Positions 18,211 through 64,000 of a stretch of DNA of 64,000 bases are shown here, piece after piece. The stretch's first letter is position 1; each line of letters starts with the position of its first letter. The stretch is taken from NCBI GenBank assembly GCA_964344485.1, contig CAYFNF010000003.1, forward strand, positions 148,467 through 212,466. Reading direction: 5' to 3'. This stretch comes from an uncultured Gammaproteobacteria bacterium. GTDB taxonomy: Bacteria; Patescibacteriota; Patescibacteriia; UBA9570; XYC2-FULL-38-9. Under the pieces are notes generated by a model. The model made no database searches and was not told the origin of the DNA. It was given only the letters and a program-made list of their open reading frames with translations. A program made the position numbers and the translations under genes.

Positions 18211-18214
18211 ATAT

Positions 18215-23764: not shown

Positions 23765-23832
23765 GTATGATTATAACAAATAAAAATATCACAAAATAGT
23801 GAAAAAGTCAATGGAATCCTCCAATACAATCA

Positions 23833-26800
23833 TTATGCAGCAGCAGCTGGCGGCTCGGGTTGCTGACGATGTCGATGATGGCTGAACCATGCTATACCAA
23901 CTAAGAATATAATGACGATTCCAATGTTAATCATCACCAGCATGGTGGTGCTTGAGAGGCGATTCTTCTCTTCAATCACAAACCGCGTGATCTCGACCTG
24001 GTCAGATTTCACACCGTTTACTTCGGTTTGAGCAAAAACGACGTGATCTCCTTCACCGAGCAACTCTGCTGGAACCGTAATACTCCATTTACCGTTGGTG
24101 TCTACTTGCGCGACTTTTACTAATGGGTCTGAATAGATCGTCAGAATTGCCACAGCAGACATCTCTCTATACTGCTCAGCAATCTCTCCGGAGATAGTAA
24201 TCTCGTTCTTCTGTTCTTCGACTGTGCCGCCGAATAATCGTCTTGTTGCATCAATAATATCCCACTGCTGAACTTGCGTATAGGTGACGGTCCCATCATC
24301 TGATACCGTCGGTTCGATTGTAGTGCTATCTTGCTGGAACTCTATATCCGCAGTGTCTTGCAGCTGTCCAGTCTCGGTGGTCTGCAATTCTTCTCTTTGC
24401 TGCTTGGTCAGCGGCACGACTTCATCTGTATATGTATACGGATTCTCTGGCGGTTGTTTGACTCCATCCTCAGCATATTGTGTTTTTATTAGCTCTTCAA
24501 ATTTCTTTACGTTCACTACAACCACATCTGGAAGGCCGGTGTCGGTTGAACCCCCTTGGATTGGGTTGGTGCCGTACTTCACTTCATCACTATCTGATAC
24601 GCCGTCGTCATCAGAATCCGTGTCTGTTGGGTCAGAACCCAAATCCACTTCGTCGGAATCGCTTACCCCATCTTGATCTGAGTCCGCGTCTTCTGGATCA
24701 GTACCTAGCTCTTTCTCTTGTTCATCAGTCAGGCCGTCTCCGTCACTATCGGTCTCAGCTGGCTCGGTGTCAGTTCCTTGGTCAGGGCCTGGGTCTGTGC
24801 CCTGGCTCGGATCGCCGGTGTCAGTGTCTGGAGTATCAGTAGAAGGAGTTTCTTGAGGGGTGGCAGGGGCTACGGGTACGCTCACAGGAGCACTTACTGG
24901 TGCTGACACAGTAAAGGTGATTTCATTCGAAGTAGTCTCTGGATAGCCAGCTTGTTCAGAAGTGACAGCGTATGCAGTATGCGTGCCTGTAGATAGTGCA
25001 GATGGACGACATGCAACAGAGCTGGTCTCTCCACCACCAGTTGCAGTAGTATCGCAAATTCTCTGCCCATCAACATAGATTTGGGTATAAGCACCAGTAC
25101 GTGCTAATAGAGTAATCCATGGTCGGTTATATGATGTCTGCGCGTCCACCACAACTTGTTGCATCACTGCTGCAGGGTATGGGGTTGCGCGTACAATAGT
25201 CTGTGGAGTAAATACCTTTATCACAGTATCTTTTTTCGTATTCACGACCTTTACCTTGATCGCATTCGCTCCAATTGATAGTGCGGTGGTTGGTGTGCCC
25301 TGATATGAAATCACTGGACCAGTGTCGCTGGTAATAGCAGCAGTTCCGCTCAACGTACCGTTTACGAACAGTTGTACTGCAACATCATCCACTGAGATAT
25401 TTCCGATATAGACGTTACCGAAAAAGACCGGGTTCTTACTAAACGTCACATTCGAAGTCAATTTACTTCGCTCCTCTTTTGGATAGATATGAAATCGATC
25501 TGACACTACAGAAGATCCGACCGTATACCGGACACTGGATGTCTTTCCCACATTCCCTTTCTTATCTTCGATATTTGCCTCAGACGTATGTTTGTCGTAA
25601 TTCTTCTGGATCTGCGAATCTACCTCCCATTCTCCTTGCGCGTCTGTGGTGTCAGAACCGTCTAACTCACCTTCGGTATATACAGAAACTTCAGACTCTG
25701 TTTCAGCAGTTCCACTAAATGAAACGTATTGGTTGTAAACAATGTCATTTTGTTCTGGCTCTTCGATTACTGCTGCAGGCGGGCCGATTGAGAAACTCGC
25801 GGTCTTCTCCCACTCTGTGGAGCTGGATCTACTAGCGGTCTTCACTTTTGTGTACAGCTCCCAGAGTCCGCGCTTCAGTGTAAACTCTGTTTCTGCTGTG
25901 CCGTTACTGCCGACCTGTTCTTCATTGATCTTCTCTGCGCCGTTCTTTACGCGCACAAATTTAAACACCACCCACTGGCCAGTGGTTCCGGTTGCTGATA
26001 GCTCTACCTTCAGACGACCGGTATCCTCCTGTGCACTCAGTCGATGTACGCTCGAAGGATCACTTCGCAACTGCTCTCCATTTACTGTTAGTGCGGTGGG
26101 TAACAGTGATGACGCTGATCCTTCCTGTGTAGTGAATGAGTCTACTGAAGAGTTCGATGTATTACTACTCGCATCCGCGCTCACTACCTGATAGTAATAT
26201 GTAGTGCTGCTTAAAAGCCCTGATACAGTCACTGAATGGCTCTTTGTTAATCCACTAGTTGTTTGTGACTGCGGAATTTGCTCAGTCTTTCCATATCGTA
26301 CTTGTGATGTTGCTTTTTCATTCGTGGTCCAAGTAATAACCGCGGATGTAGAACGGCGAGTGACTTGAATATCTGAAATAGTGGGCGCCGAAAGGTCTCC
26401 AGTATCTGTGGTTGGGATTACTGACCCTGAAGTAAACTGAGATGTATTGTTTGATGAGTCTGTTAGCGTTGCAGTGACTTTATAGTTAGAAGCATATGAT
26501 TCTAGAGTGCTCTTGGGAACATCAACGCTCCATGTTAAACTCGTGACCGCTGCTTCTGTTATATAGACCTCGCCTTCATTATTCCGGTCTACAAAGACCT
26601 CCACTGTTCCGTCACTAGATGCAGTACCCGAGACAGTGTATGTATCTCCTTGCAAAGAAATTGCACTGATCACTGGGGTAGCAAGCCCCTCATTTGCTCC
26701 ATCAATTAGATTAATTCCACTTGAGGAGTTGTTATAGATAGAATTCTGTGTTACTAAATTGTATTTAGTTCCACTTTGAGAGATGTTCAATCCATCTGCA

Positions 26801-29202
26801 TAGGCGTTAGTAACTATGTTGCCCGGTCCAATGGTGTTGCTCTGACTAGTATTGGAGAGTGTTACTGCGTTCCACTGACACGGAAGCGGATCACCGTTTG
26901 TATCGATGCCGATCCTGTTTGATGAGAGAGTATTGTTTGAAGAGTCAGCAAATACCACACAGCGGTCTATATTGCCGATCACATTATCACTAATGGTGTT
27001 CCCAGTGCTGTTCGCTCGAATGATAATTCCATATACGTCATCCTGAGTAACAGGTTTCGTGATACCAATCCTATTACTGGAAATCACATTATTAATTCCA
27101 CCTTGCATTAGAATGTTCATGACATTGCCCGCAATAGTGTTGCTACCATTGATAGTGTTAGAACTGCCAGTGAGTTCAAGGCCGACAGCATTCTGCATCA
27201 CCGTTTGTTTACTCACTGCGAGGCCAATAGTATTCCCAGTGGCGGTGTTACTGTCTCCTTCAATCCATAACCCCACGCCGCTATGGTTAGAGATGAAATT
27301 CGTAGATATAGAATTACTATCGCTTTCAGTATCAATCACAAGACCGTTTGTGGTGTTTCCGATATTCGTATCACTTGCAGATACACCGATGTAGTTATCT
27401 GAGAGTGTGTTTGAATCAGAGGAATAGATAGCAATGCCCGATTCATTAAAACCAATGACATTAGATTGCGATGTTCCAATTCTACTATTTGATACTCCAG
27501 TAAATAGAATTCCGGTTCCAGTGTTCCCTCGATCGACTAGTGAAGCGTTGGTTCCAATATAATTACCCTCTATCGCTAGCTGAGAGATGTTTCCTGCGCT
27601 GCTATTTGCCTCAATACCATTTGATAGATTTCCAGAGATAGTATTCTTCGAAATCGATACCGCATTCGCGCTAATGGCAATAGAGATGCCATCCTCACCA
27701 TTCGAAACCGCTGCTCCACTTGAATCCAATCCAATAGTATTCTCAGTTATTGTGACATCGCTATCGTTTTCCAAGTAAATCCCATTTGCATCATTTCCTG
27801 AAATCACGTTATTCGGACCAATCGTTGTGTCTGCCCCACCAAAGATTCCGTCAGTATTTGGAATGGCTGTTCCAGAACTGTTTAATCCAATATAGTTCCC
27901 GGTGATTGTTCCAGTGCTCTGGTTCACTACTACCCCTGACTGGGTATTACCTGCAATAGTGTTGTTCGAAAGTGTATTCGCTCCTTGAAATGTTACACCG
28001 TTATTATTTTCAACTGCGCTCGTGCCGTTACTATCTACTCCGATATTATTCTTATTCACCGTGTTCCCAGATGTAGTTGCTTCTAAGAAGATACCTGACT
28101 TTGTATTGCCTGAAATTGTATTGCCAACGATCGTGTTATTGTTTCCGGTTACTCGAATACCTGAATCCCCATTAGTGGATTTTGTGGAACCGTCTGCAGT
28201 TATACCTATATAGTTCAAACCGATAGTACTGCTACTGCCTCGCAATTCAATTCCGTTGCTCGTATTTCCAGAGATGATATTGCGGAACGCTTGGTTGCTG
28301 CTATCTCCAATAGTGATGCCAGATACCGTCGCTGCTATATTAACTCCGTTTATCCCATTAGCGGTGATAGTGTTAGAACGCAATACATTAGTATTTGAAT
28401 TCTCGATAAAATTCACTCCCTGCTCAGAATTATTCGATATCGAGTTACCGGTTACCGTGGTGCTGGTTGCAGTGCCCCCAAAATAGATTCCGTTACGATT
28501 GCCTTTGATTGTGTTGCCTGAAATGGCATTATTACTCGATGCGACCTGAATGCCTTCACCCCCTGCAAAGCCTTCTATCGTGAAATTTGATATCTGACAA
28601 TTATCCGCTCGGATAGCTAGCCCATCATTATCTTGAGCTGCTGACAGCGCGCTCCCTTCAATGCCAACTCTGTTATCCCCATCGATTATAAGTTCATCAG
28701 TAATCGCGGGTAGCACACTTGAGGTTACTGCTATCTTTCCGTTTAATGAACTATTGAAACTGATCACGTCAGCACCAAGACTCGCGTTTGCATCGAGTAT
28801 AGCTTGCCGCAAAGATCCCGCACCGCTGTCATTCAAGTTTGACACAGTGAAATTAGCAGCATACGCGACTTTGATCTGATTCACCGGTAGCACTACAGAT
28901 GAAATTGCATACAAGAGAATAACCACTGCAACAAAGAACGCGGTGACTAACCCGCTGCGTAGTCGTATCTTTTTTCTGCGACTGTGATGCTCATGATACG
29001 AAAAACCCCAGATCCCTTTATGGTCTTGGTCATATAATGTACAGAATGTGTGCTGAGGTGGATAGAAAATGATATAGAAATATTCGTACAGCACGTATGC
29101 TATATATAGTGGAACGAGCGCAATGCCTAAAAGGACACGAATAATGAACGGTCGGGGTTTGGCTTGTACGTAGCACTCAATATGATTGATGGTTTTTTTC
29201 AT
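23833..29202 (-). CDS. giant cell-surface protein (1789 aa): N-terminal TM/signal, GSLRQAI (CSLREA-like) motif, many parallel beta-helix repeats, FN3-like domain, TSP3-like Ca-binding D-x-D-x-D-G repeats, C-terminal TM anchor
   Basis: Repetitive N.I.GN...GI units typical of right-handed beta-helix; DSDGDGLTDEQE/DSDQDGVSDSDE/DSDDDGVSDSDE repeats; C-terminal hydrophobic LVMINIGIVIIFLVGIAWF + HHRHRQQ. Confidence 0.8.
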   Translation of the reverse strand: MKKTINHIECYVQAKPRPFIIRVLLGIALVPLYIAYVLYEYFYIIFYPPQHTFCTLYDQDHKGIWGFSYHEHHSRRKKIRLRSGLVTAFFVAVVILLYAISSVVLPVNQIKVAYAANFTVSNLNDSGAGSLRQAILDANASLGADVISFNSSLNGKIAVTSSVLPAITDELIIDGDNRVGIEGSALSAAQDNDGLAIRADNCQISNFTIEGFAGGEGIQVASSNNAISGNTIKGNRNGIYFGGTATSTTVTGNSISNNSEQGVNFIENSNTNVLRSNTITANGINGVNIAATVSGITIGDSSNQAFRNIISGNTSNGIELRGSSSTIGLNYIGITADGSTKSTNGDSGIRVTGNNNTIVGNTISGNTKSGIFLEATTSGNTVNKNNIGVDSNGTSAVENNNGVTFQGANTLSNNTIAGNTQSGVVVNQSTGTITGNYIGLNSSGTAIPNTDGIFGGADTTIGPNNVISGNDANGIYLENDSDVTITENTIGLDSSGAAVSNGEDGISIAISANAVSISKNTISGNLSNGIEANSSAGNISQLAIEGNYIGTNASLVDRGNTGTGILFTGVSNSRIGTSQSNVIGFNESGIAIYSSDSNTLSDNYIGVSASDTNIGNTTNGLVIDTESDSNSISTNFISNHSGVGLWIEGDSNTATGNTIGLAVSKQTVMQNAVGLELTGSSNTINGSNTIAGNVMNILMQGGINNVISSNRIGITKPVTQDDVYGIIIRANSTGNTISDNVIGNIDRCVVFADSSNNTLSSNRIGIDTNGDPLPCQWNAVTLSNTSQSNTIGPGNIVTNAYADGLNISQSGTKYNLVTQNSIYNNSSSGINLIDGANEGLATPVISAISLQGDTYTVSGTASSDGTVEVFVDRNNEGEVYITEAAVTSLTWSVDVPKSTLESYASNYKVTATLTDSSNNTSQFTSGSVIPTTDTGDLSAPTISDIQVTRRSTSAVITWTTNEKATSQVRYGKTEQIPQSQTTSGLTKSHSVTVSGLLSSTTYYYQVVSADASSNTSNSSVDSFTTQEGSASSLLPTALTVNGEQLRSDPSSVHRLSAQEDTGRLKVELSATGTTGQWVVFKFVRVKNGAEKINEEQVGSNGTAETEFTLKRGLWELYTKVKTASRSSSTEWEKTASFSIGPPAAVIEEPEQNDIVYNQYVSFSGTAETESEVSVYTEGELDGSDTTDAQGEWEVDSQIQKNYDKHTSEANIEDKKGNVGKTSSVRYTVGSSVVSDRFHIYPKEERSKLTSNVTFSKNPVFFGNVYIGNISVDDVAVQLFVNGTLSGTAAITSDTGPVISYQGTPTTALSIGANAIKVKVVNTKKDTVIKVFTPQTIVRATPYPAAVMQQVVVDAQTSYNRPWITLLARTGAYTQIYVDGQRICDTTATGGGETSSVACRPSALSTGTHTAYAVTSEQAGYPETTSNEITFTVSAPVSAPVSVPVAPATPQETPSTDTPDTDTGDPSQGTDPGPDQGTDTEPAETDSDGDGLTDEQEKELGTDPEDADSDQDGVSDSDEVDLGSDPTDTDSDDDGVSDSDEVKYGTNPIQGGSTDTGLPDVVVVNVKKFEELIKTQYAEDGVKQPPENPYTYTDEVVPLTKQQREELQTTETGQLQDTADIEFQQDSTTIEPTVSDDGTVTYTQVQQWDIIDATRRLFGGTVEEQKNEITISGEIAEQYREMSAVAILTIYSDPLVKVAQVDTNGKWSITVPAELLGEGDHVVFAQTEVNGVKSDQVEITRFVIEEKNRLSSTTMLVMINIGIVIIFLVGIAWFSHHRHRQQPEPPAAAA

Positions 29203-41113: not shown

Positions 41114-41677
41114 ATGATTATTTTCGGAATTATCGCCGCTGTAGTGGTAGTCATCGGCCTCTGGCTGATTCTCACATACAACGGCTTAATCCGATCACGC
41201 AATCAAGTTGATGAAGCGTGGTCAGATATTGACGTTCAATTAAAACGTCGGTATGACCTTATCCCAAACTTAATCGAAACCTGTAAGGGATATGCAAAAC
41301 ATGAGAACGAAACGTTCCAACAGGTAACAGAAGCTCGAGCTAATGCAATTAAAGCTGAACAAGCTGGCGACACCAAGAAACTCGGGGAAGCAGAGAACAT
41401 GCTGACCGGCGCATTGAAGAGCCTGTTTGCTGTTGCTGAGAACTACCCAGAATTGAAAGCAAATGAAAACTTTCTTCAATTGCAGGATGAACTCTCAGAC
41501 ACCGAGAACAAGATCCAGGCATCACGTCGTTTCTACAACGGAAATGTTCGAGACTTCAACACCAAGGTTCAAGTGTTCCCAACCAACTTAATTGCCGGAA
41601 TGCTCGGATTCAAGGACTATGAATTCTTCGAGATTGGAGAAGAGGAAGAACGAGAAAATCCACAAGTAAAATTCTAG
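41114..41677 (+). CDS. lemA: LemA family protein
   Basis: N-terminal TM then YN.LIRSRNQVDEAWSDIDVQLKRRYDLIPNLIETCKGYAKHE, hallmark of LemA family. Confidence 0.8.
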   Translation: MIIFGIIAAVVVVIGLWLILTYNGLIRSRNQVDEAWSDIDVQLKRRYDLIPNLIETCKGYAKHENETFQQVTEARANAIKAEQAGDTKKLGEAENMLTGALKSLFAVAENYPELKANENFLQLQDELSDTENKIQASRRFYNGNVRDFNTKVQVFPTNLIAGMLGFKDYEFFEIGEEEERENPQVKF

Positions 41678-41726
41678 CAGCCTTTTGCGCGCAACAACGC
41701 GTGTTTGAGCTACCCTTCATACCTCT

Positions 41727-42662
41727 ATGACGGTCTATCAACAGATTTCTAAAAATAAGAGGCGCACTATTGTATTGATGATGATCTTTATTGCGTTCAT
41801 TCTTGGTTTAGGGTATGTGCTTGCTGAGTACTACGCCGGTGTTGGTTATATTGGTTTAGTGTACGCTGCAATCCTCTCGTTAGTCATGACAACGGTAAGT
41901 TACTTCGGTGGAGACAAAGCTGCGTTGCTAACATCAGGCGCAAAGGAGATCGCAAAAGATGATAACCCATACGTCTGGCGCATGGTAGAGAACCTCTGCA
42001 TCACTTCAGGCTTGCCTATGCCACGAGTTTATATCATCAATGATCCAGTGATGAATGCATTTGCTACAGGCCGAAAACCAGAGAAGTCTTCTATTGCACT
42101 AACAACCGGGCTAATTGAAAACCTCGAGAATGAAGAGCTAGAAGGAGTCATCGCACACGAACTCTCTCATATACAGAACTACGACACTCGATTAATGATG
42201 GTAGTGGTAGTGTTGGTTGGAGTGTTAGCGTTAATGGCAGACTGGATGTGGCGGTTCCATTTCTTCAGTGGTAACCGACGAGGTGGAGGACGTCGCGGTG
42301 GCGGTGGATTCCAGATTGAACTGATCTTTGCGATTGTCGGTGTGGCATTAATCATCCTCTCCCCAGTCATTGCCGAGCTGATTAAACTCGCGATATCGAG
42401 AAAGCGTGAGTACTTAGCAGATGCGTCTGCAGTGTTGATGACTCGATACTCTGAAGGATTAGCAGGGGCATTAGAAAAGATCGCTAAGCAAGACGGAAAA
42501 ATGCTGCGCGCGAACCATGCAACCGCACATCTGTATATCGCTAATCCATTTGGAGCAAAAGCAAAGAAATGGCTCACTCGTCTCTGGTCCACGCATCCGC
42601 CAATAGAAGATCGTATCGCAAAATTGCGAGATATGGGCGGATCTCCGCAAATTGAGGTATAA
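41727..42662 (+). CDS. htpX: zinc metalloprotease HtpX (M48 family)
   Basis: HELSHIQNYDT HExxH, 4 TM helices, C-terminal E...ADA.A; Gly/Arg-rich insertion NRRGGGRRGGGG; lemA-htpX pairing. Confidence 0.85.
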   Translation: MTVYQQISKNKRRTIVLMMIFIAFILGLGYVLAEYYAGVGYIGLVYAAILSLVMTTVSYFGGDKAALLTSGAKEIAKDDNPYVWRMVENLCITSGLPMPRVYIINDPVMNAFATGRKPEKSSIALTTGLIENLENEELEGVIAHELSHIQNYDTRLMMVVVVLVGVLALMADWMWRFHFFSGNRRGGGRRGGGGFQIELIFAIVGVALIILSPVIAELIKLAISRKREYLADASAVLMTRYSEGLAGALEKIAKQDGKMLRANHATAHLYIANPFGAKAKKWLTRLWSTHPPIEDRIAKLRDMGGSPQIEV

Positions 42663-42692
42663 TAGAAATACAAATATATAACCCATATATCT

Positions 42693-43487
42693 ATGGCAAA
42701 AACAAATGTTCATCAACAGGTCATTGCAATAAGCAAAAGCTATCACGATAGCATAGAAATCTACACAAAACACTTCTTAAAACTCATGGGAGTAGTGCTG
42801 ATTCCTAACCTATTAACGTATTTTCTGATTATTTCATTGAAGGCTTCTGTGGTCTCCTCTATTGCAAAACTTGGAGCGCTCGAGTTCTTTTCGTTCACAA
42901 ATATTAACTTTATTGTTTCGCTACTATTAATTCTCACCATTGTTATTGTGCAAGCACTGGGTGTAATTGCTTTAACGTATATGGTGGTACATCGAGAACG
43001 AGTCGCGGTGTTGACCGCGTTTGAACACTCCCTAGAGTTCTTCTGGAGATTTATCGGTCTGGCAATAGTCCTCATGGTTATCACTGGAATTGGTTTACTG
43101 CTGGGGTTCCTATTAGTAATCCTTATTGGCAGTCCGCTAGCAAGCTATTCACTCACTGCACTGGAATATACCTTTGACTGGCTGATGTTGATACCAGTAA
43201 TAATCAGCGCAATCATTACCACCTTCTTTGTCTTTGCTAGTTATAGCATTGTTGATAAGAATCAGAGCATTACTAAAGGTCTGCAACACAGCTTTACATT
43301 AGTGCGAGGACACTTTATCCCTGTTGCCATTCGCGTACTGCTGATCTATATCATCACCTCACTACTGTTCTTCGGAATTCAGTTTATTCCTCATATCGGA
43401 AACATTGTTTCTGTTATCCTGGTTGCTCCGTTCTCAGTGGTCTACCTCTACATTCTCTATAACGACTTAGTAAAATTTAAATCCTAA
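42693..43487 (+). CDS. polytopic membrane protein, unknown function
   Basis: About 6 hydrophobic helices; no motif recognised. Confidence 0.4.
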   Translation: MAKTNVHQQVIAISKSYHDSIEIYTKHFLKLMGVVLIPNLLTYFLIISLKASVVSSIAKLGALEFFSFTNINFIVSLLLILTIVIVQALGVIALTYMVVHRERVAVLTAFEHSLEFFWRFIGLAIVLMVITGIGLLLGFLLVILIGSPLASYSLTALEYTFDWLMLIPVIISAIITTFFVFASYSIVDKNQSITKGLQHSFTLVRGHFIPVAIRVLLIYIITSLLFFGIQFIPHIGNIVSVILVAPFSVVYLYILYNDLVKFKS

Positions 43488-43496
43488 CCTGTTTCT

Positions 43497-46076
43497 TTGT
43501 TCATGCAACTTGACCTACTCGACAAATTCACTTCTCATCTTCGCGGCGCACTTTCTCGGTCCATTGACCTTGCATGGCAATTACAACAAGAATCCATACC
43601 TCCGCTGTTTTTACTTATCTCAATAGCAGAACAACAAGGGAGTATTGGTTCTGACCTGCTCAAACGATATAACATATCCATGAAGACACTAGCAGAGTAT
43701 CTCTCTGAGCACGGTGAACAGTTCGCGCCGACTGTTTTACAGGAGCTCACAAAGTCAAAAAAACCATTTGTATTCCTGTGGCCAGAGTTTTCTTCTAAGA
43801 CAAAGGATTTAATTGAGCACGCAGCACTGACAGCGTACGATTATGAACATCAACATATTGGAACAGAGCATCTGCTGTTTGCGGTGTTGGACCAACAGGA
43901 TGAGGATGTTCAGCAGGTTCTTGCTCAGTCCAAAACCTCCTCGCAGAAGATCATTGGGGATTTAAAGAAAATACTGGAACAGAACACAGCAGCTGCACAA
44001 GTAGAAGCCGCGTTCACTAAAGCAGATAAAGCAGACCCAGACGACCAAATTGGTGTTGCTACTGCAGAGCTTTCCGCAGAAGAGGTGTCTGAGACTCCAG
44101 CGCTTGATTACTTTGGTATTGATCTTACTAGTACTGCGCAACAGGAGCAGCTTGATCCAGTGATTGGACGTGAAGATGAGATTGAGCGTGTTATACATAT
44201 CCTCTCTCGGCGCACTAAGAATAATCCAGTGTTAATCGGTGAACCAGGTGTTGGGAAAACAGCTATTGCAGAAGGCTTAGCCAAGCATATTGTAGACGGG
44301 AAAGTACCGGACATTCTACTTCACAAACGAATCATCTGCTTGGATTTAAGCTTGGTCCTCGCAGGCACTATGTATCGCGGTGAATTCGAATCGCGGTTAA
44401 AACAAGTAATTGAAGAGCTCAAAAGCCACCCTGATATTATTCTGTTTATTGATGAAATACACATGATTGTTGGAGCCGGAGGAGTGCAAGGTGGAAATAT
44501 GGATGCAGCAAATATCTTAAAGCCAGCGTTAGCAAAAGGGCTGATCCGTTGTATTGGAGCGACCACATCAGATGAATACCGCAAGCATATTGAAAACGAC
44601 CCTGCGCTTGAACGCAGGTTCCAACCTGTAGTGGTAGAAGAACCAACCATGGAGCAAACAGTAGATATCCTAAAAGGACTACGCAGCTACTATGAAACCT
44701 ATCACCACATTCGCATTCCAGATGCAGTGATTGAATCTGCAGTACAGTGGTCTACACGATATCAGCCGGATAAACACCAGCCGGATAAAACTATTGATTT
44801 AATTGATGAAGCTGGAGCAAAAGTGCACTCCAAACGCTCGGTTCCTGAATCTATGCGTGAACTGGACCGCTGCACACGCTTACTCTCCTCTCTGCGAAAA
44901 AAGAAAGAACTCGCTGCACAAGCAGAACGATTCTCTCTTGCGGTTGATATAAAGAAGCAAGAAGGAGTAATCGTGAAAAAGATGAAAGAGCTGCAAAAAC
45001 AGGTCCGTGCGTTAAAGATCCCTGCTACAGCGCTAACTGCAGATGATATTGCACAAGTACTCTCCTCAGCTACGAGCATCCCAGTTGACCACATTCGTGC
45101 GACCGGCAAGGAACGGTACGCAACGTTGGAGACAGAGATGAAGAAGTGCATCTTTGGGCAGGATGAAGCTATTGAGAAGGTCTGCTCGGTGATTAAGCGT
45201 TCGTACGCTGGACTTGCTTCTCCAAATCGTCCGTTAGGCAGCTTCATGCTGCTTGGGCCATCAGGCGTCGGAAAGACTGAATTAGCAAAAGTACTCGCAG
45301 AGAAGAATTTTGGACACCGAGATAACGTGATCCGCGTGGATATGTCTGAATTCTCTGAGAGTTTTACTGTGTCAAAGTTGATTGGTGCTCCAGCGGGATA
45401 TGTAGGGTATAACGACGGTGTGAAAATCTCCGACCATATTCGCCGCCGCCCGTACTCTGTAGTACTCTTTGATGAAATTGAGAAAGCACACCCGGATATA
45501 TTTAATATCTTGTTACAAGTTCTGGATGAAGGACGACTTACGGACTCTTCTGGACGTGAGCTTAACTTCCGCAATGCAATTGTGATCTTTACTTCGAATA
45601 TTGGAATCGATCTACTGAACCGACAAGCTGCAATTGGGTTTTCTACCGAAGAAGAGCAACCGGAAGAGTACCTCTCTCAAGAAGAGATTGAAGCGACGAT
45701 CACCCAAGAGCTGCAGCAACAGTATCCGCAGGAGTTCTTGAATCGCATCGATCATATTATGGTCTTCAGCTCCTTAACGCAAAAGAGCATGGAGAAAATT
45801 GTACAAGCACAATTCAAAGAGATTCAAGTGCGGTGCAAAGAAAAAGGTATATCGCTTCGACTTCTTCCGACTGCTAAACGCCACCTTGCAACTCAGAGCT
45901 ATGATCCGCAACAAGGAGCACGGTTGGTACGAAAAACACTCTCAGACTTGATCGAAGACCCATTAGCTGATAAGCTATTAACCAAGAAGTTCCGACCTGG
46001 AAATACTGTAGCAGTCAAGTTGAAAAAAGATGCGATTGTACTAGAACAGCAGAAGGACACCAAGAAAAAGAAGTAG
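43497..46076 (+). CDS. clpC: Clp/Hsp100 AAA+ chaperone ATPase, ClpC-like (two AAA modules, short middle domain)
   Basis: Clp_N repeats, Walker [16 protein letters not shown] and [18 protein letters not shown], Walker [10 protein letters not shown] / [11 protein letters not shown], sensor motifs. Confidence 0.85.
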
Positions 46077-57028: not shown

Positions 57029-59071
57029 ATGTCTGCATCCACACCACTATCACAGTTACACGGAGTCGGGCCTTCAATAATGAAGCGTTTGAAAGTTCTT
57101 GGCATTACCACCACACATGATTTAATGTGGCACTTTCCACGTCAGTATGAGGACCGTTCACTCATGACTGATATTATTGACGTAGAACCGGATAGCAAAG
57201 TGACTATCCACGGCACGATTGAAAAAATACAGTCACGTCAGTCGTGGAAACGTCGTATCAACCTCACTGAAGCAACTGTTACTGATACTACAGGATCTAT
57301 AAAAGCGATCTGGTTTAACCAGCCGTACGTAGCAAACACACTAAAAAAGGGGGATACAGTACAGCTCTCTGGTCAAGTAAAGAAAACCAAGTACGGAACG
57401 TCTCTGCAGAGCCCGGTCTATGAGAAAGTATTTGAAGAAAAAGATACGACGCATACTGGGCGCATTGTTCCAAAGTACTCCCTGACAAAGGGTGTAACGC
57501 AAAAGCAACTTCGGTATTTTATGAAGCAGGCGCTGGAAATAGAACTCCCGGTTGAGGATTACGTCCCTGAAGAGATACTACAGGAGTACGAATTATTTCC
57601 TTTAGCTGATGCACTGCAACATATTCACTTCCCCACTTCTGAGCAGGACTTTCTTCAAGCAAAACAACGATGTGACTTCGACTCACTCTATATCATTCAG
57701 CTCTATGCGCAGCTCCTGCGTCAAGAGTTGCAATCTCAGCAAGCCTCCAGTATCGAGTTCCAGGAACGTGCGATAAAACACTTTGTTGACGAGCTCCCGT
57801 TTACGTTAACCAATGCACAAAAGAAAGCATCATGGGCCATTCTACAGGATGTAGAGAAACAGACCCCGATGAACCGGCTGCTTATTGGAGATGTTGGATC
57901 AGGAAAAACCATAGTGGCAGCGATCGCGATGTTGAATGCAGTTTTAAATGGCGCGCAAGCTGCGCTCATGGCGCCAACAGAGATTCTAGCAAAACAGCAC
58001 TATCAGACACTACAAGAAGTATTTGACACAAAGAACATCACGATTGAATTGCTCACTGGTTCTACAAAAAACGGACCAAAGCAACAACAGCTTGAAGGGT
58101 GTGCGTCTGATATCGTTGTCGGTACACACGCGTTAATTCAAGAGAGCGTCACGTTTAACAATTTAGGTCTAGCTATAGTGGATGAGCAACATCGGTTTGG
58201 GGTAGAACAACGAAAAGCGCTGAAATACCAGTCTGGGGATGAAAAAACTGCGCCGCATCTGCTGTCCATGACCGCCACCCCGATTCCACGAACATTAGCG
58301 CTAGCATTATACGGAGACTTAGACCTCTCTATTATTGATGAACTACCGACAGGTAGAAAGCCAGTCACTACGAATCTTGTTCCCCCAAACAAGCGAGAGG
58401 ATGCATATGGATTTATCCGGGAACACCTCGACCGCGGAGAGCAGTGTTTTGTGGTCTGCCCTCTGATTGATCCTTCGGATACGCTGGAAGTCAAAGCTGT
58501 CACCACAGAGTATGAACACTTGTGCAACGAAGTGTTTCCTGAGTACCAGTTAGAGATTCTACACGGAAAGATTCAGCCACAGGAGAAAGATGATATCATG
58601 CAACGCATGCGTAATAAGGAGATCGACATCTTGGTCTCCACATCTGTTATTGAAGTTGGAGTAGATATTCCGAATGCGACAATTATCGTAATTGAAGGTG
58701 CGGACAGATTTGGATTAGCACAACTACATCAATTCCGTGGTCGAGTCGGTCGTTCTGATACACAGTCATACTGCTTGCTCTTCTCCGAATCAGATAATGA
58801 ACAGACTATTAAACGGCTACAGGTACTGACGAACACCTATGATGGATTCAAGCTTGCAGAACAAGACTTACAGCTGCGTGGAGCTGGAGAGTTCTTTGGT
58901 AAAAATCAGACCGGGTTCTCCCCATTAGCAATGCTTGCGTACCAGCAGCCACAATTACTAAACAGTGCTCGCTCAGCAGCAAAACAAACACTAGCGAAGG
59001 ATTATATCTCTTCCACGCCATTGCTAAAAAAGAAAATCACTGAATTTACAAAAAGCATCCACTTAGAGTGA
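57029..59071 (+). CDS. recG: ATP-dependent DNA helicase RecG
   Basis: Wedge/OB N-terminus, helicase motif I GDVGSGKT, DEQHRFGV motif II, motif VI FRGRVGR. Confidence 0.9.
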   Translation: MSASTPLSQLHGVGPSIMKRLKVLGITTTHDLMWHFPRQYEDRSLMTDIIDVEPDSKVTIHGTIEKIQSRQSWKRRINLTEATVTDTTGSIKAIWFNQPYVANTLKKGDTVQLSGQVKKTKYGTSLQSPVYEKVFEEKDTTHTGRIVPKYSLTKGVTQKQLRYFMKQALEIELPVEDYVPEEILQEYELFPLADALQHIHFPTSEQDFLQAKQRCDFDSLYIIQLYAQLLRQELQSQQASSIEFQERAIKHFVDELPFTLTNAQKKASWAILQDVEKQTPMNRLLIGDVGSGKTIVAAIAMLNAVLNGAQAALMAPTEILAKQHYQTLQEVFDTKNITIELLTGSTKNGPKQQQLEGCASDIVVGTHALIQESVTFNNLGLAIVDEQHRFGVEQRKALKYQSGDEKTAPHLLSMTATPIPRTLALALYGDLDLSIIDELPTGRKPVTTNLVPPNKREDAYGFIREHLDRGEQCFVVCPLIDPSDTLEVKAVTTEYEHLCNEVFPEYQLEILHGKIQPQEKDDIMQRMRNKEIDILVSTSVIEVGVDIPNATIIVIEGADRFGLAQLHQFRGRVGRSDTQSYCLLFSESDNEQTIKRLQVLTNTYDGFKLAEQDLQLRGAGEFFGKNQTGFSPLAMLAYQQPQLLNSARSAAKQTLAKDYISSTPLLKKKITEFTKSIHLE

Positions 59072-59094: not shown

Positions 59095-60081
59095 TTAATA
59101 TGAACAGCCGTGCCCGGTCCATTCGTAGTGCATGTAGTCTTTTACACTGCTCCAATCTCCGCCCCACATAAACCCTTCATTCTTAAACGCATTGATTAAC
59201 CAATCTGGATAGTCACAAGCGTCTGTTCCAGTAGTAGCGTTGTAGTTTGCACACATATCTGAGGAGAATTTCTCAGTGGTGTAACACGACATGGTTTTTT
59301 TACAGTTTGGATTGTTGCTCCAATTCACATCAATAGCAAAGCCGAATGAGTGATTACTGTAACACGAGGGATTGTTTACGTTTTGACGCCAGGCCCATGT
59401 TCCCGTATGACCAAATTCAATATCATATTGAGATGACGGGTGACCGTAATTATATGCAGCTATGGTTGCAAATGCATTTTCAAACGCGAGCTGTGCATCT
59501 TTATGGACTGCAAGTGTTTTTGCATGGTCGTCCACTCCATCATCAACCGTAATGCGCACTAAGTAATTTGTGTCCACGTAATCCTTATCAAATAAATTCT
59601 CATACTTTCCTGCTAGGCAGGTCTGCATACCACTTGTACAGTTGCTAGGATCACCATCTGCCATAAATGACAGTTCTGGTACGTCAATATCTCCATAGAT
59701 AGTAAATGTTGGACTGATCATATTAATGATAGTCCACGAAAGAAGTGCGATAACCAAACCGATCAGTGCATTCGTAATACGATCCTTCCCTTCGGATACT
59801 TTCTCTTTATTTCCAGCTGCTAGCGCCCATTGCGCACCACCAAAGATTATCATCCCTACTGCAACAATCGCGATACCGCTCACCAAGAACTGGTACATTG
59901 CAGCAAGATAGTTTGGCAGATACGGTTCAGTAATATTCTGCAGTACTCCAAGGCCAACTTCTAGTTTGATCACCGCCGCTGAGACTACCATAGGAAACGC
60001 TCCACAAAAAGCCATCACAGTCGTCAGTATTCTCCGCGGAGTGAAGCGAATTGATGATGTGTGTATTGTTTTTCGAGACAT
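59095..60081 (-). CDS. membrane protein: VirB2/TrbC-like signal + two-helix hairpin module fused to C-terminal M15-family peptidoglycan peptidase domain
   Basis: Shared N-module motif IKLEV.LG...Y..FL...IAIVAVGMIIFGGAQWALAAGN.EKV.E.K.RITNAL.GLVIALLSWTI; C-terminal HSFGFAID (HxxGxAxD), FMWGGDWSS, DYMHYEW zinc-peptidase M15 signatures. Confidence 0.6.
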   Translation of the reverse strand: MSRKTIHTSSIRFTPRRILTTVMAFCGAFPMVVSAAVIKLEVGLGVLQNITEPYLPNYLAAMYQFLVSGIAIVAVGMIIFGGAQWALAAGNKEKVSEGKDRITNALIGLVIALLSWTIINMISPTFTIYGDIDVPELSFMADGDPSNCTSGMQTCLAGKYENLFDKDYVDTNYLVRITVDDGVDDHAKTLAVHKDAQLAFENAFATIAAYNYGHPSSQYDIEFGHTGTWAWRQNVNNPSCYSNHSFGFAIDVNWSNNPNCKKTMSCYTTEKFSSDMCANYNATTGTDACDYPDWLINAFKNEGFMWGGDWSSVKDYMHYEWTGHGCSY

Positions 60082-60162
60082 GTAAAATCTCTAATCAAAT
60101 AGTGTCAATACTATTGTACAAGAAAATAGCAAAAAGTCAATCTACAATCCTCCTACACTCCC

Positions 60163-60909
60163 TTATCCCTCTTGCTGAATTTTTTCGATCTCCTGCTCTA
60201 CTAACACGCGCATCTCTTCAATCGTCTTCTCTCCAGTAACAAAAGTATCATTAATGAAGTACGATGGGGCTGAGTCAATCTGCAATGTCTTTGCAATATA
60301 GTATCCTTGTACAACGAGTTGCTTTTTTGATGTACCTGAGACGCACTCAGAAAACGTTTCAGTGTCTAAACCAATATCTTCAGCAATGGAGACCCAAGGA
60401 TTCAGAATAAACTGGTCTTGATCAAAGAATAGGAGATCATGGTACGCCCAAAAAGAATCCTGGTCTTGTGCGCAGCGTGCTGCCATAGCAGCGGTCTCAG
60501 AATTTTCATGTAATCGTGGAATTGGAAAGTCCTTCCACACATGCAAAACATCATTCGGATACTCTTGAACAATCTGCTCTATAATCGGGGACATGCGTTT
60601 ACACGCTTCACATTCAAAATCACCAAATTCAACGATAGTTACTGTTGGGCTCGCTGCGCCGCGCTGCGGATCAGTTGTTAATGGTCTGGGTGTGCTATCA
60701 CTCCCGTCAATTCCAGAGGGTACTTGAGTAATCAGCGGGTCGTACGGCATGGCACTGCCGGAGACCACCTCTCCATTGGTCGCGGTCTCAGTCCCTTGAT
60801 CAATATCTGACGCAGCATGATTTGTTACTGTAGCGCTTGCAACAAATAAAATGGCGATACAAACAGCACCGAGAACAAATATAAGAACTGCGCGGTTTTT
60901 CTTTTCCAT
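60163..60909 (-). CDS. DsbA-like thiol:disulfide oxidoreductase (membrane-anchored thioredoxin fold)
   Basis: N-terminal TM, thioredoxin CEAC active site in FGDFECEACKRMSPI context. Confidence 0.65.
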   Translation of the reverse strand: MEKKNRAVLIFVLGAVCIAILFVASATVTNHAASDIDQGTETATNGEVVSGSAMPYDPLITQVPSGIDGSDSTPRPLTTDPQRGAASPTVTIVEFGDFECEACKRMSPIIEQIVQEYPNDVLHVWKDFPIPRLHENSETAAMAARCAQDQDSFWAYHDLLFFDQDQFILNPWVSIAEDIGLDTETFSECVSGTSKKQLVVQGYYIAKTLQIDSAPSYFINDTFVTGEKTIEEMRVLVEQEIEKIQQEG

Positions 60910-60912
60910 ATG

Positions 60913-62151
60913 TTACTCTAATTCAATCTTAATTAAGCTGCCAGTGGTGGAGTCTTTAAAATAGAGCGTCTCTTCATCGTCGGACACGACCATATAATCG
61001 ACCGAATATGACGCTGTTCCATTTTCATCCACTGGAGTTGCTAGCTTAGTTTTAATTCCGGTGCTCAAATTAATCTTATAGATATCGTCCGCAACATCAT
61101 TCAGTAGTCGCGGTTCTAAACCGTATGCATCTACATCTTCTGCTGGGATGCCACAGTACGCGGTACCGCCATCACTACTGATCGTACATTTATCAGCAAA
61201 CGTATTAACGTTCAACTCTTTTCTATTTTTACCGATATCATCGCCATCCGAGTCCACAATCCATAGCGACGGTTTATAACCTGTACTACTGGAGTAGACG
61301 CTATAGAGTGCTTGCTTTCCGTCGGGTGTGTATTGATATTGCAGGCCCTTACCTTCAACAATGGTTCCTTTAAAGTTCTCTCCTTTTAATCCGATAAAAC
61401 CAAGTTCTTGCCTATTAAAATCAATAAACTCTGCCCAAGTAGCAGCGACTTTCCCAGTCGGAGACCACTCGACATTCACGCGATGTGCATTATTTCCAAG
61501 TGACTCTAACGTCCGTGCTGATGAGCCGTCAGGGCTGGACACTGCAAGTACTCGACGTTCTGGATCGATATGCATGTACTTGAATGCAATCTGATTTGAT
61601 GTCGGAGAGAAATCAAACTCTTCGTACTCCTTCGGTAGAGTGACTTGTGTATTTGAGTCCAGATCATAGTAGACATTAGTACCATCGGGAAATTCTAAGA
61701 TAGTTTCATTTGTTGTGTCTGCCCATGTGACTGTATCTACTGAGCTAAATCGGGCATCACTCAATGCGGTAACCTCACCGTCTGCATTTACTTTATAGAA
61801 CTTTCCGTCTTCTGCGTCATAGTAGCGCAGCGTACCATCTTTTGCTACTGACGGATCCTGTGCGTCTGTATCCGGAGTAAGAATGTCGGTTGCGGTATTT
61901 CCGCCTAACGCAACAGCGTCCACACCTGGAACAGTGGTGGTGGTATTGATGTTTGGCTCTGCGTTGTTTACATTCTCAAGTAACTCATTCACATTCGGGA
62001 GGCCGATATTAGCGTTGTTCACATTTTCATTGGTAACATCAGGCGGCGGTTGTCTAAAAAACACAATATACAGTAAATATGCAAGAGCGATCACTGTGAC
62101 CACAAAAAGTATGATCAACAGCGTTCTTTTTAATTTAGGGTTTAGTGCCAT
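60913..62151 (-). CDS. membrane-anchored PD40/TolB-like beta-propeller protein
   Basis: N-terminal TM; repeated [SYW](S/T)PDG/T..(I/A)... blades (FSPTSNQIAF, WSPTGKVAAT, YTPDGKQALY, SSDGGTAY). Confidence 0.5.
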   Translation of the reverse strand: MALNPKLKRTLLIILFVVTVIALAYLLYIVFFRQPPPDVTNENVNNANIGLPNVNELLENVNNAEPNINTTTTVPGVDAVALGGNTATDILTPDTDAQDPSVAKDGTLRYYDAEDGKFYKVNADGEVTALSDARFSSVDTVTWADTTNETILEFPDGTNVYYDLDSNTQVTLPKEYEEFDFSPTSNQIAFKYMHIDPERRVLAVSSPDGSSARTLESLGNNAHRVNVEWSPTGKVAATWAEFIDFNRQELGFIGLKGENFKGTIVEGKGLQYQYTPDGKQALYSVYSSSTGYKPSLWIVDSDGDDIGKNRKELNVNTFADKCTISSDGGTAYCGIPAEDVDAYGLEPRLLNDVADDIYKINLSTGIKTKLATPVDENGTASYSVDYMVVSDDEETLYFKDSTTGSLIKIELE

Positions 62152-62171
62152 ATAAATACTATCTTAATAAT

Positions 62172-63317
62172 TTATACACATTTATGTTGCGAGCCGTCCC
62201 AGGTAGTACCAGGCGTACAGTCGTCACATTTATCGTCCGTACATCCTCTTCCAGGTCCTTGACACTGATAATCTGCAGTACATTCATCTCCTGGACTGCC
62301 GTCGAAACACTCATTCGCCCACTCAAATGAACAGTACATGAGCGGACTATCTCCTCCGTAACAATCTGTGTCCCCGTCGCACGAATCTCCTTCTGCTTTT
62401 GGAGTACAGGAACTGCTCACACACTTAAATCCAGAAATACAATCACTTGAGTTTACGCACGGAAGACTATCTGACCCATCACCAGTAATACAGAAATTCT
62501 CTACTGTATTACATATTCCTGACTTACAGACACTATCTGATGTACAATACGCACCTTCAGAACGATTATTCTGAGTCAAGCACTTCTTTGACGGGTCTCC
62601 TTCACAGACAAACCCGGTTTCACAGTCTGCTTCGCTCGCACAGAGCGTTCCAGAGGTAGCAGTCGTACAAACCCCAGGTGCAGACGGACTCCCGCCAGCA
62701 CACGTCATGGGTTCTATACAATTTTCATCGCGTTGACATGCTGCGCCTTCACCGTTCGTATTTGTTCCGGTTGGACGACAGACCGTTAACCCCTCACCTA
62801 CATTCACACACTCACAGCCTCCCACACAGTAACTCACGCTCGTACACGCTGATTCTGCTCCACCTGGACATTCGGTCCAGTCAGAGGTAGTACCGTCACC
62901 CGAAGCCGTAAATTCAATCCCTGTTGGACAGATATTACCGAAAATCACCATTCCATCACTAATAATGCTCATTATGGTATAAGACAGCAAAGCGAGCACC
63001 AGCCCGAGCAGTGCATTAGTAATACGTGACTTAGCTTCGTTTACTTTCTCTGAATTACCTGCAGCAAGTGCCCACTGTGCTCCACCGAACATAATCATAC
63101 CCACTGCAACAACAGCAATTGCTTGAATTAAAAACGTATACACTGCGGTAATGTACTCACCTAAGCTAATTACTTGTTCGAGAGTGCCAACTTGCACTTC
63201 TAACTTAATTGGACTGGTAATACAATCCTCTGCAAACGCAGGGAAAGCAGCGATAAACAGCCCAGTCATGACTGCGGCGAGTAATGGTATTCTTTTGTAG
63301 AGATAATGTTGTTTCAT
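62172..63317 (-). CDS. membrane protein: paralogous VirB2/TrbC-like N-module fused to large Cys-rich extracellular domain (about 40 Cys)
   Basis: N-module about 55% identical to that of 59095..60081 (VVAVGMIMFGGAQWALAAGNSEKVNEAKSRITNALLGLVLALLSYTI); C-terminal G.C/C..C repeats. Confidence 0.55.
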   Translation of the reverse strand: MKQHYLYKRIPLLAAVMTGLFIAAFPAFAEDCITSPIKLEVQVGTLEQVISLGEYITAVYTFLIQAIAVVAVGMIMFGGAQWALAAGNSEKVNEAKSRITNALLGLVLALLSYTIMSIISDGMVIFGNICPTGIEFTASGDGTTSDWTECPGGAESACTSVSYCVGGCECVNVGEGLTVCRPTGTNTNGEGAACQRDENCIEPMTCAGGSPSAPGVCTTATSGTLCASEADCETGFVCEGDPSKKCLTQNNRSEGAYCTSDSVCKSGICNTVENFCITGDGSDSLPCVNSSDCISGFKCVSSSCTPKAEGDSCDGDTDCYGGDSPLMYCSFEWANECFDGSPGDECTADYQCQGPGRGCTDDKCDDCTPGTTWDGSQHKCV

Positions 63318-63322
63318 ATGTT

Positions 63323-64000
63323 TTAAAAAATTGCACTAGCTATTTCATCAACTAAGGAGGTGACCCCTAGTTCTTGTAACGCAGACATGGCTTCTTGTAG
63401 ACGTCCCCAATTCCATGGGGTCATCAGAGCAACAGCTGCGCTAACAATGACTAGAGCGAAAATATATTGAGCAGCCATGGAGATGAATATCAGGAACTCT
63501 GTAAATAATAGTAGAACGAACAGAGCTTTTTGCGCCATGTCCGGCTCTTCAAACATCTTTGTAGATTTTAGGAACTGAGAGATAAAGCCCAGTACTGGGA
63601 TCTCTGGTAGTAGATAGTATCCGAAAAAATGTAGATGAATGTAAATTAGTGTTGATGGATCACAGCAACAGAGATCTTCGGGTAGAGCAATAAACATCTC
63701 CCATAACCACATGCGACTTCCTGGCTTTGCCATACTCGATGCATCTGCAGCAGCTCCAGCTGCATCTGCAGCGCCTCCAGCTGCATCTGCTGCACCGCCA
63801 GCGCCTTTTGCTCCTTGCTTGTCTTTTCCGAGTTGAGATGCTGCTCCAGCGCCTGCTGCAAGTCCAGCTCCAGCAACAGCGCCTGCTCCGGCTCCTACTG
63901 GTCCAGCAGCGGCTCCAGCGCCTGCTCCGGCTGCGGCAGCTCCACCAGCTCCAGCAGCGGCTCCTGCTCCAGCGCCTGCTCCGGCTGCGCCTGCACCCGC
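63323..64000 (-). CDS. membrane protein with Gly/Ala-rich low-complexity N-terminal region (partial, continues past window end)
   Basis: Reading frame stays open upstream of annotated MAKPG through GCNGCNGGN repeats to the window edge; C-terminal part has 3 TM helices. Confidence 0.4.
   Translation of the reverse strand, partial: AGAGAAGAGAGAGAAAGAGGAAAAGAGAGAAAGPVGAGAGAVAGAGLAAGAGAASQLGKDKQGAKGAGGAADAAGGAADAAGAAADASSMAKPGSRMWLWEMFIALPEDLCCCDPSTLIYIHLHFFGYYLLPEIPVLGFISQFLKSTKMFEEPDMAQKALFVLLLFTEFLIFISMAAQYIFALVIVSAAVALMTPWNWGRLQEAMSALQELGVTSLVDEIASAIF

Follow-up and report, generated by a model that had tools for sequence, protein, structure and literature searches.

Pilin-family hairpins fused to a peptidase and to a Cys-rich domain in a five-gene cluster of a Patescibacterium, and their possible link to a type IV secretion locus

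A chromosomal type IV secretion system (T4SS) locus of Gram-positive type has been described in the cultured Saccharibacterium Ca. Southlakia epibionticum ML1 (SEML1_0006–0019; Wang et al., 2023, PMC10633639). The neighbours of virB4 in this locus include SEML1_0007, a LAS-fold peptidase, and SEML1_0006, which is lysozyme-like. Both were found to be essential by transposon sequencing, as were PrgI, VirB4 and six pilins of the family PF18895 (PMC10633639). A survey of Patescibacterial VirB2-like pilin arrays places PF18895 genes near virB4 in 1135 of 1948 assemblies and gives recG and radA as common in T4SS loci of the class ABY1; it also cites VirB1, PrgK, TcpG and TraG of pIP501 as membrane-tethered peptidoglycan hydrolases encoded in T4SS loci (Quinonero-Coronel et al., 2025, PMC12102498). 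The role of the Patescibacterial T4SS and its VirB2-like pilins has been called completely unknown in reviews (PMC11665869, PMC12857230). Here we describe a five-gene cluster at one end of a 64-kb window (the whole stretch of DNA analysed, positions 148,467 to 212,466 of contig CAYFNF010000003.1, assembly GCA_964344485.1), in which two proteins carry a hairpin of the PF18895 family, one fused to a zinc peptidase and the other to a Cys-rich domain. With moderate confidence we take the cluster to be the distal part of a T4SS locus of Gram-positive type (MPF-FATA-like) on the chromosome of a Kerfeldbacteria-like (ABY1) Patescibacterium, in which oxidised ectodomains are docked by their hairpin to the T4SS or a pilus for wall cutting.

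The cluster consists of five open reading frames (ORFs) on the minus strand, the first of which is cut by the window edge (Table 1). In the order of transcription these encode a Gly/Ala-rich transmembrane (TM) protein followed by proteins of 381, 412, 248 and 328 amino acids (aa), with intergenic gaps of 5, 20, 3 and 81 bp. This agrees with a preliminary description, made from the letters and ORFs of the window, which had reported five same-strand genes with gaps of 3–81 bp. The gene recG (57029..59071, plus strand) is convergent with the cluster and lies 23 bp from the end of the 328-aa gene.

The same five genes were found in four relatives, namely L003 (GCA_054014515.1), L007 (Logan SRR14610186), and L008 and L009 (Ca. 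Kerfeldbacteria CG15), in an identical order of Gly/Ala-rich TM protein, Cys-rich hairpin protein, 413-aa protein, DsbA and hairpin-peptidase. Directly upstream of them in all four are genes for two large membrane proteins, a PrgI-like (PrgI/VirB3-like) protein, a TraC-like protein, VirB4 (633–639 aa), a TM protein of ~200 aa and a small coiled-coil protein, while RadA and a convergent RecG come after the cluster. A VirB4 protein with 84% identity to the L003 one (P0024) has its only record on an NCBI contig that is 301,665 bp long, as is the single contig recorded for the window proteins P0001 and P0007; it is very probably the contig carrying the window. It is because the same genes follow the PrgI-like, TraC-like and VirB4 genes in four relatives, and because of the P0024 contig, that the cluster is taken as the tail end of such a locus in a Patescibacterium. 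The window itself does not encode P0024, and in it Pfam scans of the other ORFs and tblastn gave neither VirB4 nor VirD4, as had been noted before. The pair of hairpin paralogues, whose conservation the preliminary description had made a test of its proposal, is kept in the same order in L003, in L005/L008/L009, in L006 and in L007 (L005 and L006 show the downstream half). In metagenomic loci arranged like the window, where a hairpin gene immediately precedes the gene for the 412-aa family, VirB4 is encoded upstream in seven of seven.

Alignment of the two hairpin proteins gives 52% identity in an N-terminal region of ~136 aa (BLASTP E = 5e-31), and the invariant string reported for a common module of about 130 aa is present in both. 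Each module starts with a signal-peptide-like sequence (AFA/EDC in the 381-aa protein, VSA/AV in the 328-aa protein), followed by two strongly hydrophobic segments which are split by a short charged loop, AAGN(S/K)EKV.E.K.R. The long signal and two-helix hairpin that had been described were recovered by hydropathy analysis, which gives an h-region and two TM segments in each protein (residues 58–90 and 101–126 of the 328-aa protein, 54–87 and 99–126 of the 381-aa protein). In an AlphaFold2 (AF2) model of P0001, the database version of the 328-aa protein, helices at residues 33–65 and 70–100 are compatible with such a hairpin. Both proteins pass the gathering cut-off of PF18895 (T4SS_pilin), a family that is also carried by 107 of the 108 closest single-module representatives in the protein library. 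A typical pilin of this family would be a small stand-alone protein of about 100–140 aa, whereas the window proteins have 328 and 381 aa and belong to a fusion subfamily.

The C-terminus of the 328-aa protein matches PF13539 (Peptidase_M15_4; E = 5.8e-17, 62.5 bits against a cut-off of 25), so that the M15 peptidoglycan peptidase proposed earlier is confirmed. The zinc-ligand pattern H-x6-D...H is intact (SNH244SFGFAID251 and DYMH318), and the zinc ligands align with those of the closest solved relatives, the L-Ala-D-Glu peptidase Ply500 (2vo9, 8e-7) and LysB4 (6akv). Eight Cys of the ectodomain are invariant across six orthologues. In an AF2 model made from six sequences, an alpha/beta domain comes after a pair of long antiparallel helices. 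The database version of this protein (P0001, 306 aa) begins at Met23 and lacks the positively charged n-region of the signal peptide (60015–60081, minus strand); the longer 328-aa start is supported by orthologues.

The ectodomain of the 381-aa protein (P0007) had been described as holding about 40 Cys. It is indeed Cys-rich, but the count is 33 in the ectodomain and 34 in the whole protein. Six tandem units of ~26–33 aa make up much of this domain, each with four Cys and the consensus G..C..D.DC..G..C....C. The repeat domain fits no family and had no Pfam match at E ≤ 1, and in orthologues, which are 37–44% identical, nearly all Cys are conserved.

Between the two hairpin genes lie those of the 248-aa and 412-aa proteins. 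The former matches PF13462 (5.5e-22, 79.2 bits) and PF01323 (3.3e-11, 43.8 bits), which upholds its description as a DsbA-like oxidoreductase, and its CxxC motif is conserved in orthologues. From the N-terminal TM anchor, this protein is predicted to act outside the cytoplasm; a redox partner of the DsbB or VKOR type was not found in the window. The 412-aa gene is the most conserved of the cassette, with orthologues 55–67% identical. Its product had been called a PD40 beta-propeller, and this assignment did not hold: no significant sequence or profile match was found in Pfam or PDB, and PF07676 (PD40), which gave no match for the window protein, appeared in one of six orthologues only, at E = 0.34. 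A propeller is possible on the ground that S/T-P-D/T-G motifs recur in the beta-rich domain. A single-sequence AF2 model shows only the TM helix and then strands, and is unusable.

The first gene of the cluster had been described as a downstream membrane protein with a Gly/Ala-rich tail. A TM segment and a Gly/Ala-rich region are both present, but the gene is upstream in transcription, and the Gly/Ala-rich stretch is N-terminal to the TM segment and not a tail. One long hydrophobic segment was seen at residues 155–198 of the visible 225 by hydropathy. No match was found in Pfam, NCBIfam or PHROG; in position and architecture, however, the product corresponds to acidic, Gly/Ala-rich proteins of 391–610 aa with a C-terminal TM segment in L003, L007 and L009. 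Between its Gly/Ala-rich region and the TM segment there is a stretch of ~70 aa (LPEDLCCCDPSTLIYIHLHFFGYYLL; 63500–63740, minus strand) which is absent from the L003 and L009 counterparts, and which may reflect either an insertion or a local error of reading frame.

Table 1. Features of the five-gene cluster, in the order of transcription (positions are those of the window).
Feature	Position	Strand	Details
3' part of the first gene	63323..64000	-	Frame open to window edge (start beyond 64000); Gly/Ala-rich low-complexity region, then TM, short C-terminal tail
Cys-rich pilin-module protein, 381 aa (P0007)	62172..63317	-	PF18895 34.0 bits (cut-off 26.6)
Signal peptide of 381-aa protein	63231..63317	-	AFA/EDC
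Hairpin module of 381-aa protein	62931..63230	-	
Ectodomain of 381-aa protein	62175..62930	-	33 Cys
Six tandem ~26–33-aa units in 381-aa ectodomain	62214..62750	-	C-x5-C-x4-6-C-x4-10-C each
412-aa protein	60913..62151	-	N-terminal TM anchor 5–35, Asn/Thr-rich linker, beta-rich domain
Membrane-anchored DsbA/BdbD-like thiol-disulfide oxidoreductase, 248 aa	60163..60909	-	TM 3–31, thioredoxin fold 79–238, CEAC 100–103
Promoter-like site	60113..60140	-	TTGACT-16-TACAAT; in 81-bp gap ahead of peptidase gene; weak
Pilin-module + M15 (LAS) zinc peptidase, 328 aa	59095..60081	-	PF18895 37.4 bits (cut-off 26.6); PF13539 62.5 bits
Signal peptide of 328-aa protein	59980..60081	-	VSA/AV
Hairpin module of 328-aa protein	59692..59979	-	
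M15_4 domain of 328-aa protein	59119..59370	-	H244, D251, H318

The 412-aa family has at least 117 metagenomic relatives. In 45 metagenomic loci with enough downstream sequence, a DsbA-like gene comes directly after the 412-family gene in 36 and a hairpin gene lies within 2.2 kb of it in 40, with both present in 31. The core of the cluster is this widely conserved cassette, made up of a membrane-anchored beta-rich 412-aa protein, then a membrane-anchored DsbA, then at least one PF18895 hairpin protein with a large extracytoplasmic domain. There are one to four hairpin genes per metagenomic locus, all of them long (239–897 aa), and the 78 hairpin proteins encoded beside 412-family genes carry M23, M15_4, VanY, M15, C39-like, NlpC/P60, SLT, C70, amidase_2, glucosaminidase, CHAP, 3D or GDSL domains. 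With the window module as query, a phmmer search of the full library at E ≤ 1e-3 gave 14,716 cluster representatives, and among the best 150 of them none is shorter than 204 aa; SLT, SLT_3, VanY, M15, NlpC/P60, M23, M15_4 and GDSL were the recognisable partner domains among the 108 single-module representatives. Even at one position of the locus the peptidase subtype differs, being M15_4 in the window, VanY-type in L003 and L009, and another M15 type in L006 and L007.

While the fused domains vary in this way, hairpins from one genome are matched to each other. Paralogues have a core identity of 67% in the window, 79–85% in the L007 genome and 82% in L006, compared with 38–60% between genomes for hairpins of the same ectodomain class, and for 27 of 51 metagenomic hairpin modules the nearest relative is in the same locus. 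Recent gene conversion was considered as the cause of the match in the window and rejected, given that identical codons occur at 16 of 46 identical residues against 15.6 expected. Synonymous sites are saturated, and it is therefore selection or an old conversion, not a recent one, that would maintain the match. The L007 genome, which holds three hairpin fusions, differs in this respect: the Cys-rich protein (14776–16044) and an unlinked M15_4 fusion 8 kb off (L001, 1510–2442), both on Logan contig SRR14610186_2014, have hairpins that share 40 of 56 codons at identical residues. This pattern indicates a recent gene conversion or duplication that involved the N-module alone.

Another arrangement of the hairpin was observed in library proteins from outside the window. 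Twelve of these (P0135, P0136, P0138, P0142, P0145, P0152, P0155, P0159, P0172, P0210, P0229 and P0269) were found with tandem hairpins, and a hidden Markov model (HMM) built here confirmed 3–13 copies per polypeptide in all except P0269. P0142 (820 aa) has eight hairpins, each with a GGN(D/E)E..KK.K loop, while in P0269 (7417 aa) 17 stretches were counted by the library search and zero domains in the HMM re-check. Such proteins, of which we found no mention in the literature searched, could be 'poly-pilin' precursors or multi-hairpin membrane proteins.

Family membership (PF18895, M15 and DsbA-like), topology signals, conserved Cys and synteny can be regarded as established at the level of sequence, and from these a working order of events may be proposed. 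Both hairpin proteins would be exported by Sec and lose their signal peptides. Judging from hydropathy and the topology of VirB2, the membrane-embedded hairpin would then have its short charged loop (AAGN-EKV-E-K-R) on the cytoplasmic side, with the C-terminal domain on the outer side. There the DsbA of the cassette may introduce disulfides into both the repeat domain, with its 33 Cys, and the peptidase domain, with its 8. The linkage to VirB4 and the matching of hairpins within a genome suggest that the hairpins could dock to, or co-assemble at, the T4SS or a pilus-like stalk. The LAS zinc peptidase would in this way be placed to cleave the stem peptides of peptidoglycan, either as a VirB1-type wall opener for the machine, or on the wall of a host bacterium, or both, and the disulfide-rich repeat domain might serve as an exposed spacer or adhesin.

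Independent support for this scheme comes from the essential wall enzymes and pilins of S. epibionticum. Like the relatives of the window, its locus has PrgI, VirB4, PF18895 proteins and a wall enzyme near virB4. It differs in that its six pilin genes are short (~127–139 aa) and separate and its peptidase is a separate protein of 1113 aa, whereas both PF18895 proteins of the window are long fusions, no short pilin is seen, and a DsbA and a 412-aa family protein are embedded in the locus. By analogy, the separate LAS-fold peptidase and pilin genes of S. epibionticum would correspond to the fusion in the window. The VirB2/TrbC/TraA pilins of Gram-negative T4SS (PF04956) have in common with the window proteins a long signal peptide, two hydrophobic helices, a short charged loop and termini predicted outside; the window proteins, unlike these, carry C-terminal ectodomains of 200–250 aa and come from a monoderm organism. 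The hydrolases VirB1, PrgK, TcpG and TraG of pIP501 are lytic transglycosylases, CHAP or muramidase enzymes on a plain TM anchor, in contrast to a LAS zinc peptidase on a pilin-family hairpin, though relatives of the window hairpin do carry SLT, NlpC/P60, M23, amidase and other domains. Ply500 and LysB4 (MEROPS M15C) align with the window peptidase in the catalytic motifs SxHxxGxAxD and DYxH, but are soluble phage enzymes with a cell-wall-binding domain and have no hairpin, signal peptide or conserved disulfide Cys.

Both hairpins also align with NF045849 of NCBIfam, at 30.6 bits (E = 2e-7) and 24.9 bits (E = 1.2e-5), under its cut-off of 40. This family, the 'Mbov_0395 family pilin-like conjugal transfer protein' of a Mycoplasma integrative and conjugative element, aligns over the same hairpin region and comes from a wall-less monoderm with a system of the MPF-FATA type; its protein is small and has no ectodomain. 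The alignment hints at a hairpin that is native to systems of this type and not borrowed from Gram-negative T4SS.

A number of observations weigh against placing the cluster in a T4SS locus or against a pilin-like role for its hairpins. The adjacency of VirB4 to the window would follow from synteny and the contig of P0024, and not from DNA past position 64000. VirB4 occurs within 10 kb in only 7–8 of the 38 metagenomic loci having at least 7 kb upstream (about 20%), and it is in precisely these that the 412-family gene is immediately preceded by a hairpin gene. The cassette is therefore not obligatorily part of a T4SS operon. In most other lineages it is not beside virB4, and its usual neighbours are LemA, an M48 peptidase, ClpB, RadA and RecG. 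The conjugative-pilin-like character put forward in the preliminary description stands as far as PF18895 is concerned, but is not statistically supported for TrbC/VirB2: PF04956 was not reached (11.2 bits against a cut-off of 27.9, E = 0.45), and hhalign of the module against an alignment of five annotated plasmid VirB2/TrbC proteins gave Prob 2.2%. Bridging to PF04956 at E ≤ 1e-5 was seen in five of the 108 library relatives (best E = 4e-6) and in four of the 78 cassette hairpin proteins. No pilin was found in PDB, either with the sequence profile of the hairpin or by Foldseek with the AF2 model, which returned generic helical hairpins only and none at E ≤ 0.001; the models are themselves weak (pLDDT, the predicted local distance difference test, 61 for the peptidase fusion and 44 for the 412-aa protein). 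The window hairpin proteins have about three times the size of a pilin and are unlikely to be the sole subunits packing a VirB2-type pilus, and neither the window nor any of the 22-kb loci from relatives encodes a short plain pilin.

Some of these points are shared by an explanation in which the cassette serves the envelope independently of any T4SS, the hairpin being a mere two-pass anchor, the enzymes remodelling the cell's own wall in growth or division, and the position after virB4 in Kerfeldbacteria being a secondary rearrangement. The roughly 80% of testable metagenomic loci without VirB4 within 10 kb, set amid housekeeping genes, argue for it, as do the absence of a short pilin from the locus, the lack of a match between the module and solved pilins, and the fused domains, which span the normal autolysin repertoire (amidase, glucosaminidase, lytic transglycosylase, endopeptidases). 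It has to be set against this that the module falls in PF18895, with the frequency near virB4 and the essential members in the S. epibionticum T4SS locus cited above, and that the cassette is joined to a T4SS operon in at least four lineages. Moreover, one would normally expect a housekeeping autolysin to be orthologous at its locus; here lineages have exchanged the catalytic domain, while the hairpin is kept matched within a genome. We regard a T4SS-independent role as the main and a serious alternative, though less likely than the T4SS placement. The cassette forms a separate unit, which the Kerfeldbacteria-type arrangement joins to the T4SS operon.

Two further proposals keep the T4SS and change the part played by the hairpin. 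Tentatively, and with considerably more reserve than for the T4SS placement, the PF18895 hairpin may be a trafficking or presentation module of a polymorphic effector system and not a structural pilin. The essential T4SS would then recruit interchangeable hydrolases and disulfide-rich adhesins, anchored by their hairpins and oxidised by the DsbA, and a short pilus-like stalk would display them so that the wall of the host bacterium is breached. A version of such a system in which the hairpin is the trafficking or presentation domain by which the T4SS or pilus shows interchangeable hydrolases to the host wall and opens it for nutrient uptake by the epibiont, seems unlikely to us. Such a system would be in keeping with a constant N-module joined to highly varied C-terminal hydrolase classes that change at one locus position, with one to four hairpin genes per cassette, with the N-module recombination in the L007 genome (40 of 56 identical codons), and with a T4SS that is essential for epibiotic growth (PMC10633639); yet no immunity-like gene is evident, and the peptidase class could suit the cell's own wall equally. 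That the cluster is a prophage-derived lysis cassette, with the hairpin as holin or signal-anchor and the M15 domain as endolysin, is highly improbable. Although the nearest solved and PHROG relatives of the M15 domain are phage endolysins, the hairpin is preceded by a signal peptide predicted to be cleavable, chromosomal synteny is kept across many lineages, phage genes were not found in the 64-kb window, and the N-module matches no holin family in PHROGs (E ≤ 0.01). The holin/endolysin reading was rejected on this last result, which also answers the concern raised in the preliminary description that the module might belong to an unrelated family such as the holins.

As the probable distal end of a T4SS locus, the cluster supports in substance the earlier proposal of a pilus-like or wall-remodelling secretion module, through PF18895 membership, the linkage to PrgI-like, TraC-like and VirB4 genes in relatives and the conservation of the paralogue pair. 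The kind of T4SS is, however, already in the literature (PMC10633639, PMC12102498), and the finding is therefore less novel than had been supposed. The literature searched gave us no account of a hairpin that carries peptidoglycan hydrolases of many classes in a swappable manner, of a widespread cassette of 412-family, DsbA and pilin-fusion genes, or of hairpins that are closer within a genome than between orthologues. The main text of PMC12102498 treats PF18895 proteins as small pilins, unlike the long fusions of the window, and in the passages searched no description was found of enzyme or Cys-rich fusions, of the DsbA/412-family cassette or of the matching of hairpins within a genome.

The remainder of the window is made up of chromosomal housekeeping genes, among them those for RpoD, DnaG, ClpB, PPDK, pyruvate kinase, EF-P, S6 and RecG, and includes a gene for a pyridoxal-phosphate-dependent enzyme (PALP-family, cysteine-synthase-like). 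No T4SS genes and no further PF18895 gene were identified in it outside the cluster. A promoter and terminator scan of the region gave nothing above shuffled controls, and the number of promoter-like sites was likewise not above controls. A block of LemA (41114..41677), M48 peptidase (41727..42662), a 264-aa ORF and ClpB (43497..46076) occupies 41114–46076 on the plus strand. In most other Patescibacterial loci the LemA/M48/ClpB block is directly upstream of the 412-family/DsbA/hairpin cassette, while here it is 15 kb off and on the opposite strand, which points to a rearrangement in the lineage of the window. Three very large consecutive ORFs of 1179, 1849 and 1789 aa lie at 14671–29202 (minus strand). 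The first gave a weak HEAT-repeat hint only, and the second has an M48 peptidase motif at its N-terminus and an ABC1 atypical kinase domain at its C-terminus. The third has right-handed beta-helix/NosD repeats, bacterial TSP3 repeats and a purple-acid-phosphatase N domain, and is on account of these likely a surface protein.

For annotation, the fusions call for caution, as a protein of 300–900 aa that matches 'T4SS_pilin' is no pilin as the term is ordinarily understood. In the sole genetically tractable Patescibacterium, both the T4SS and its VirB2-like pilins are essential, and this locus gives a concrete lead on their function, in that a pilin-family hairpin is covalently joined to wall-cutting enzymes and the cassette has a disulfide oxidoreductase of its own. 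It also points to a possible location for the 'missing VirB1' of these systems. Were the hairpin indeed a module for trafficking or presentation, this would explain the purpose of a T4SS in epibiotic ultra-small bacteria.

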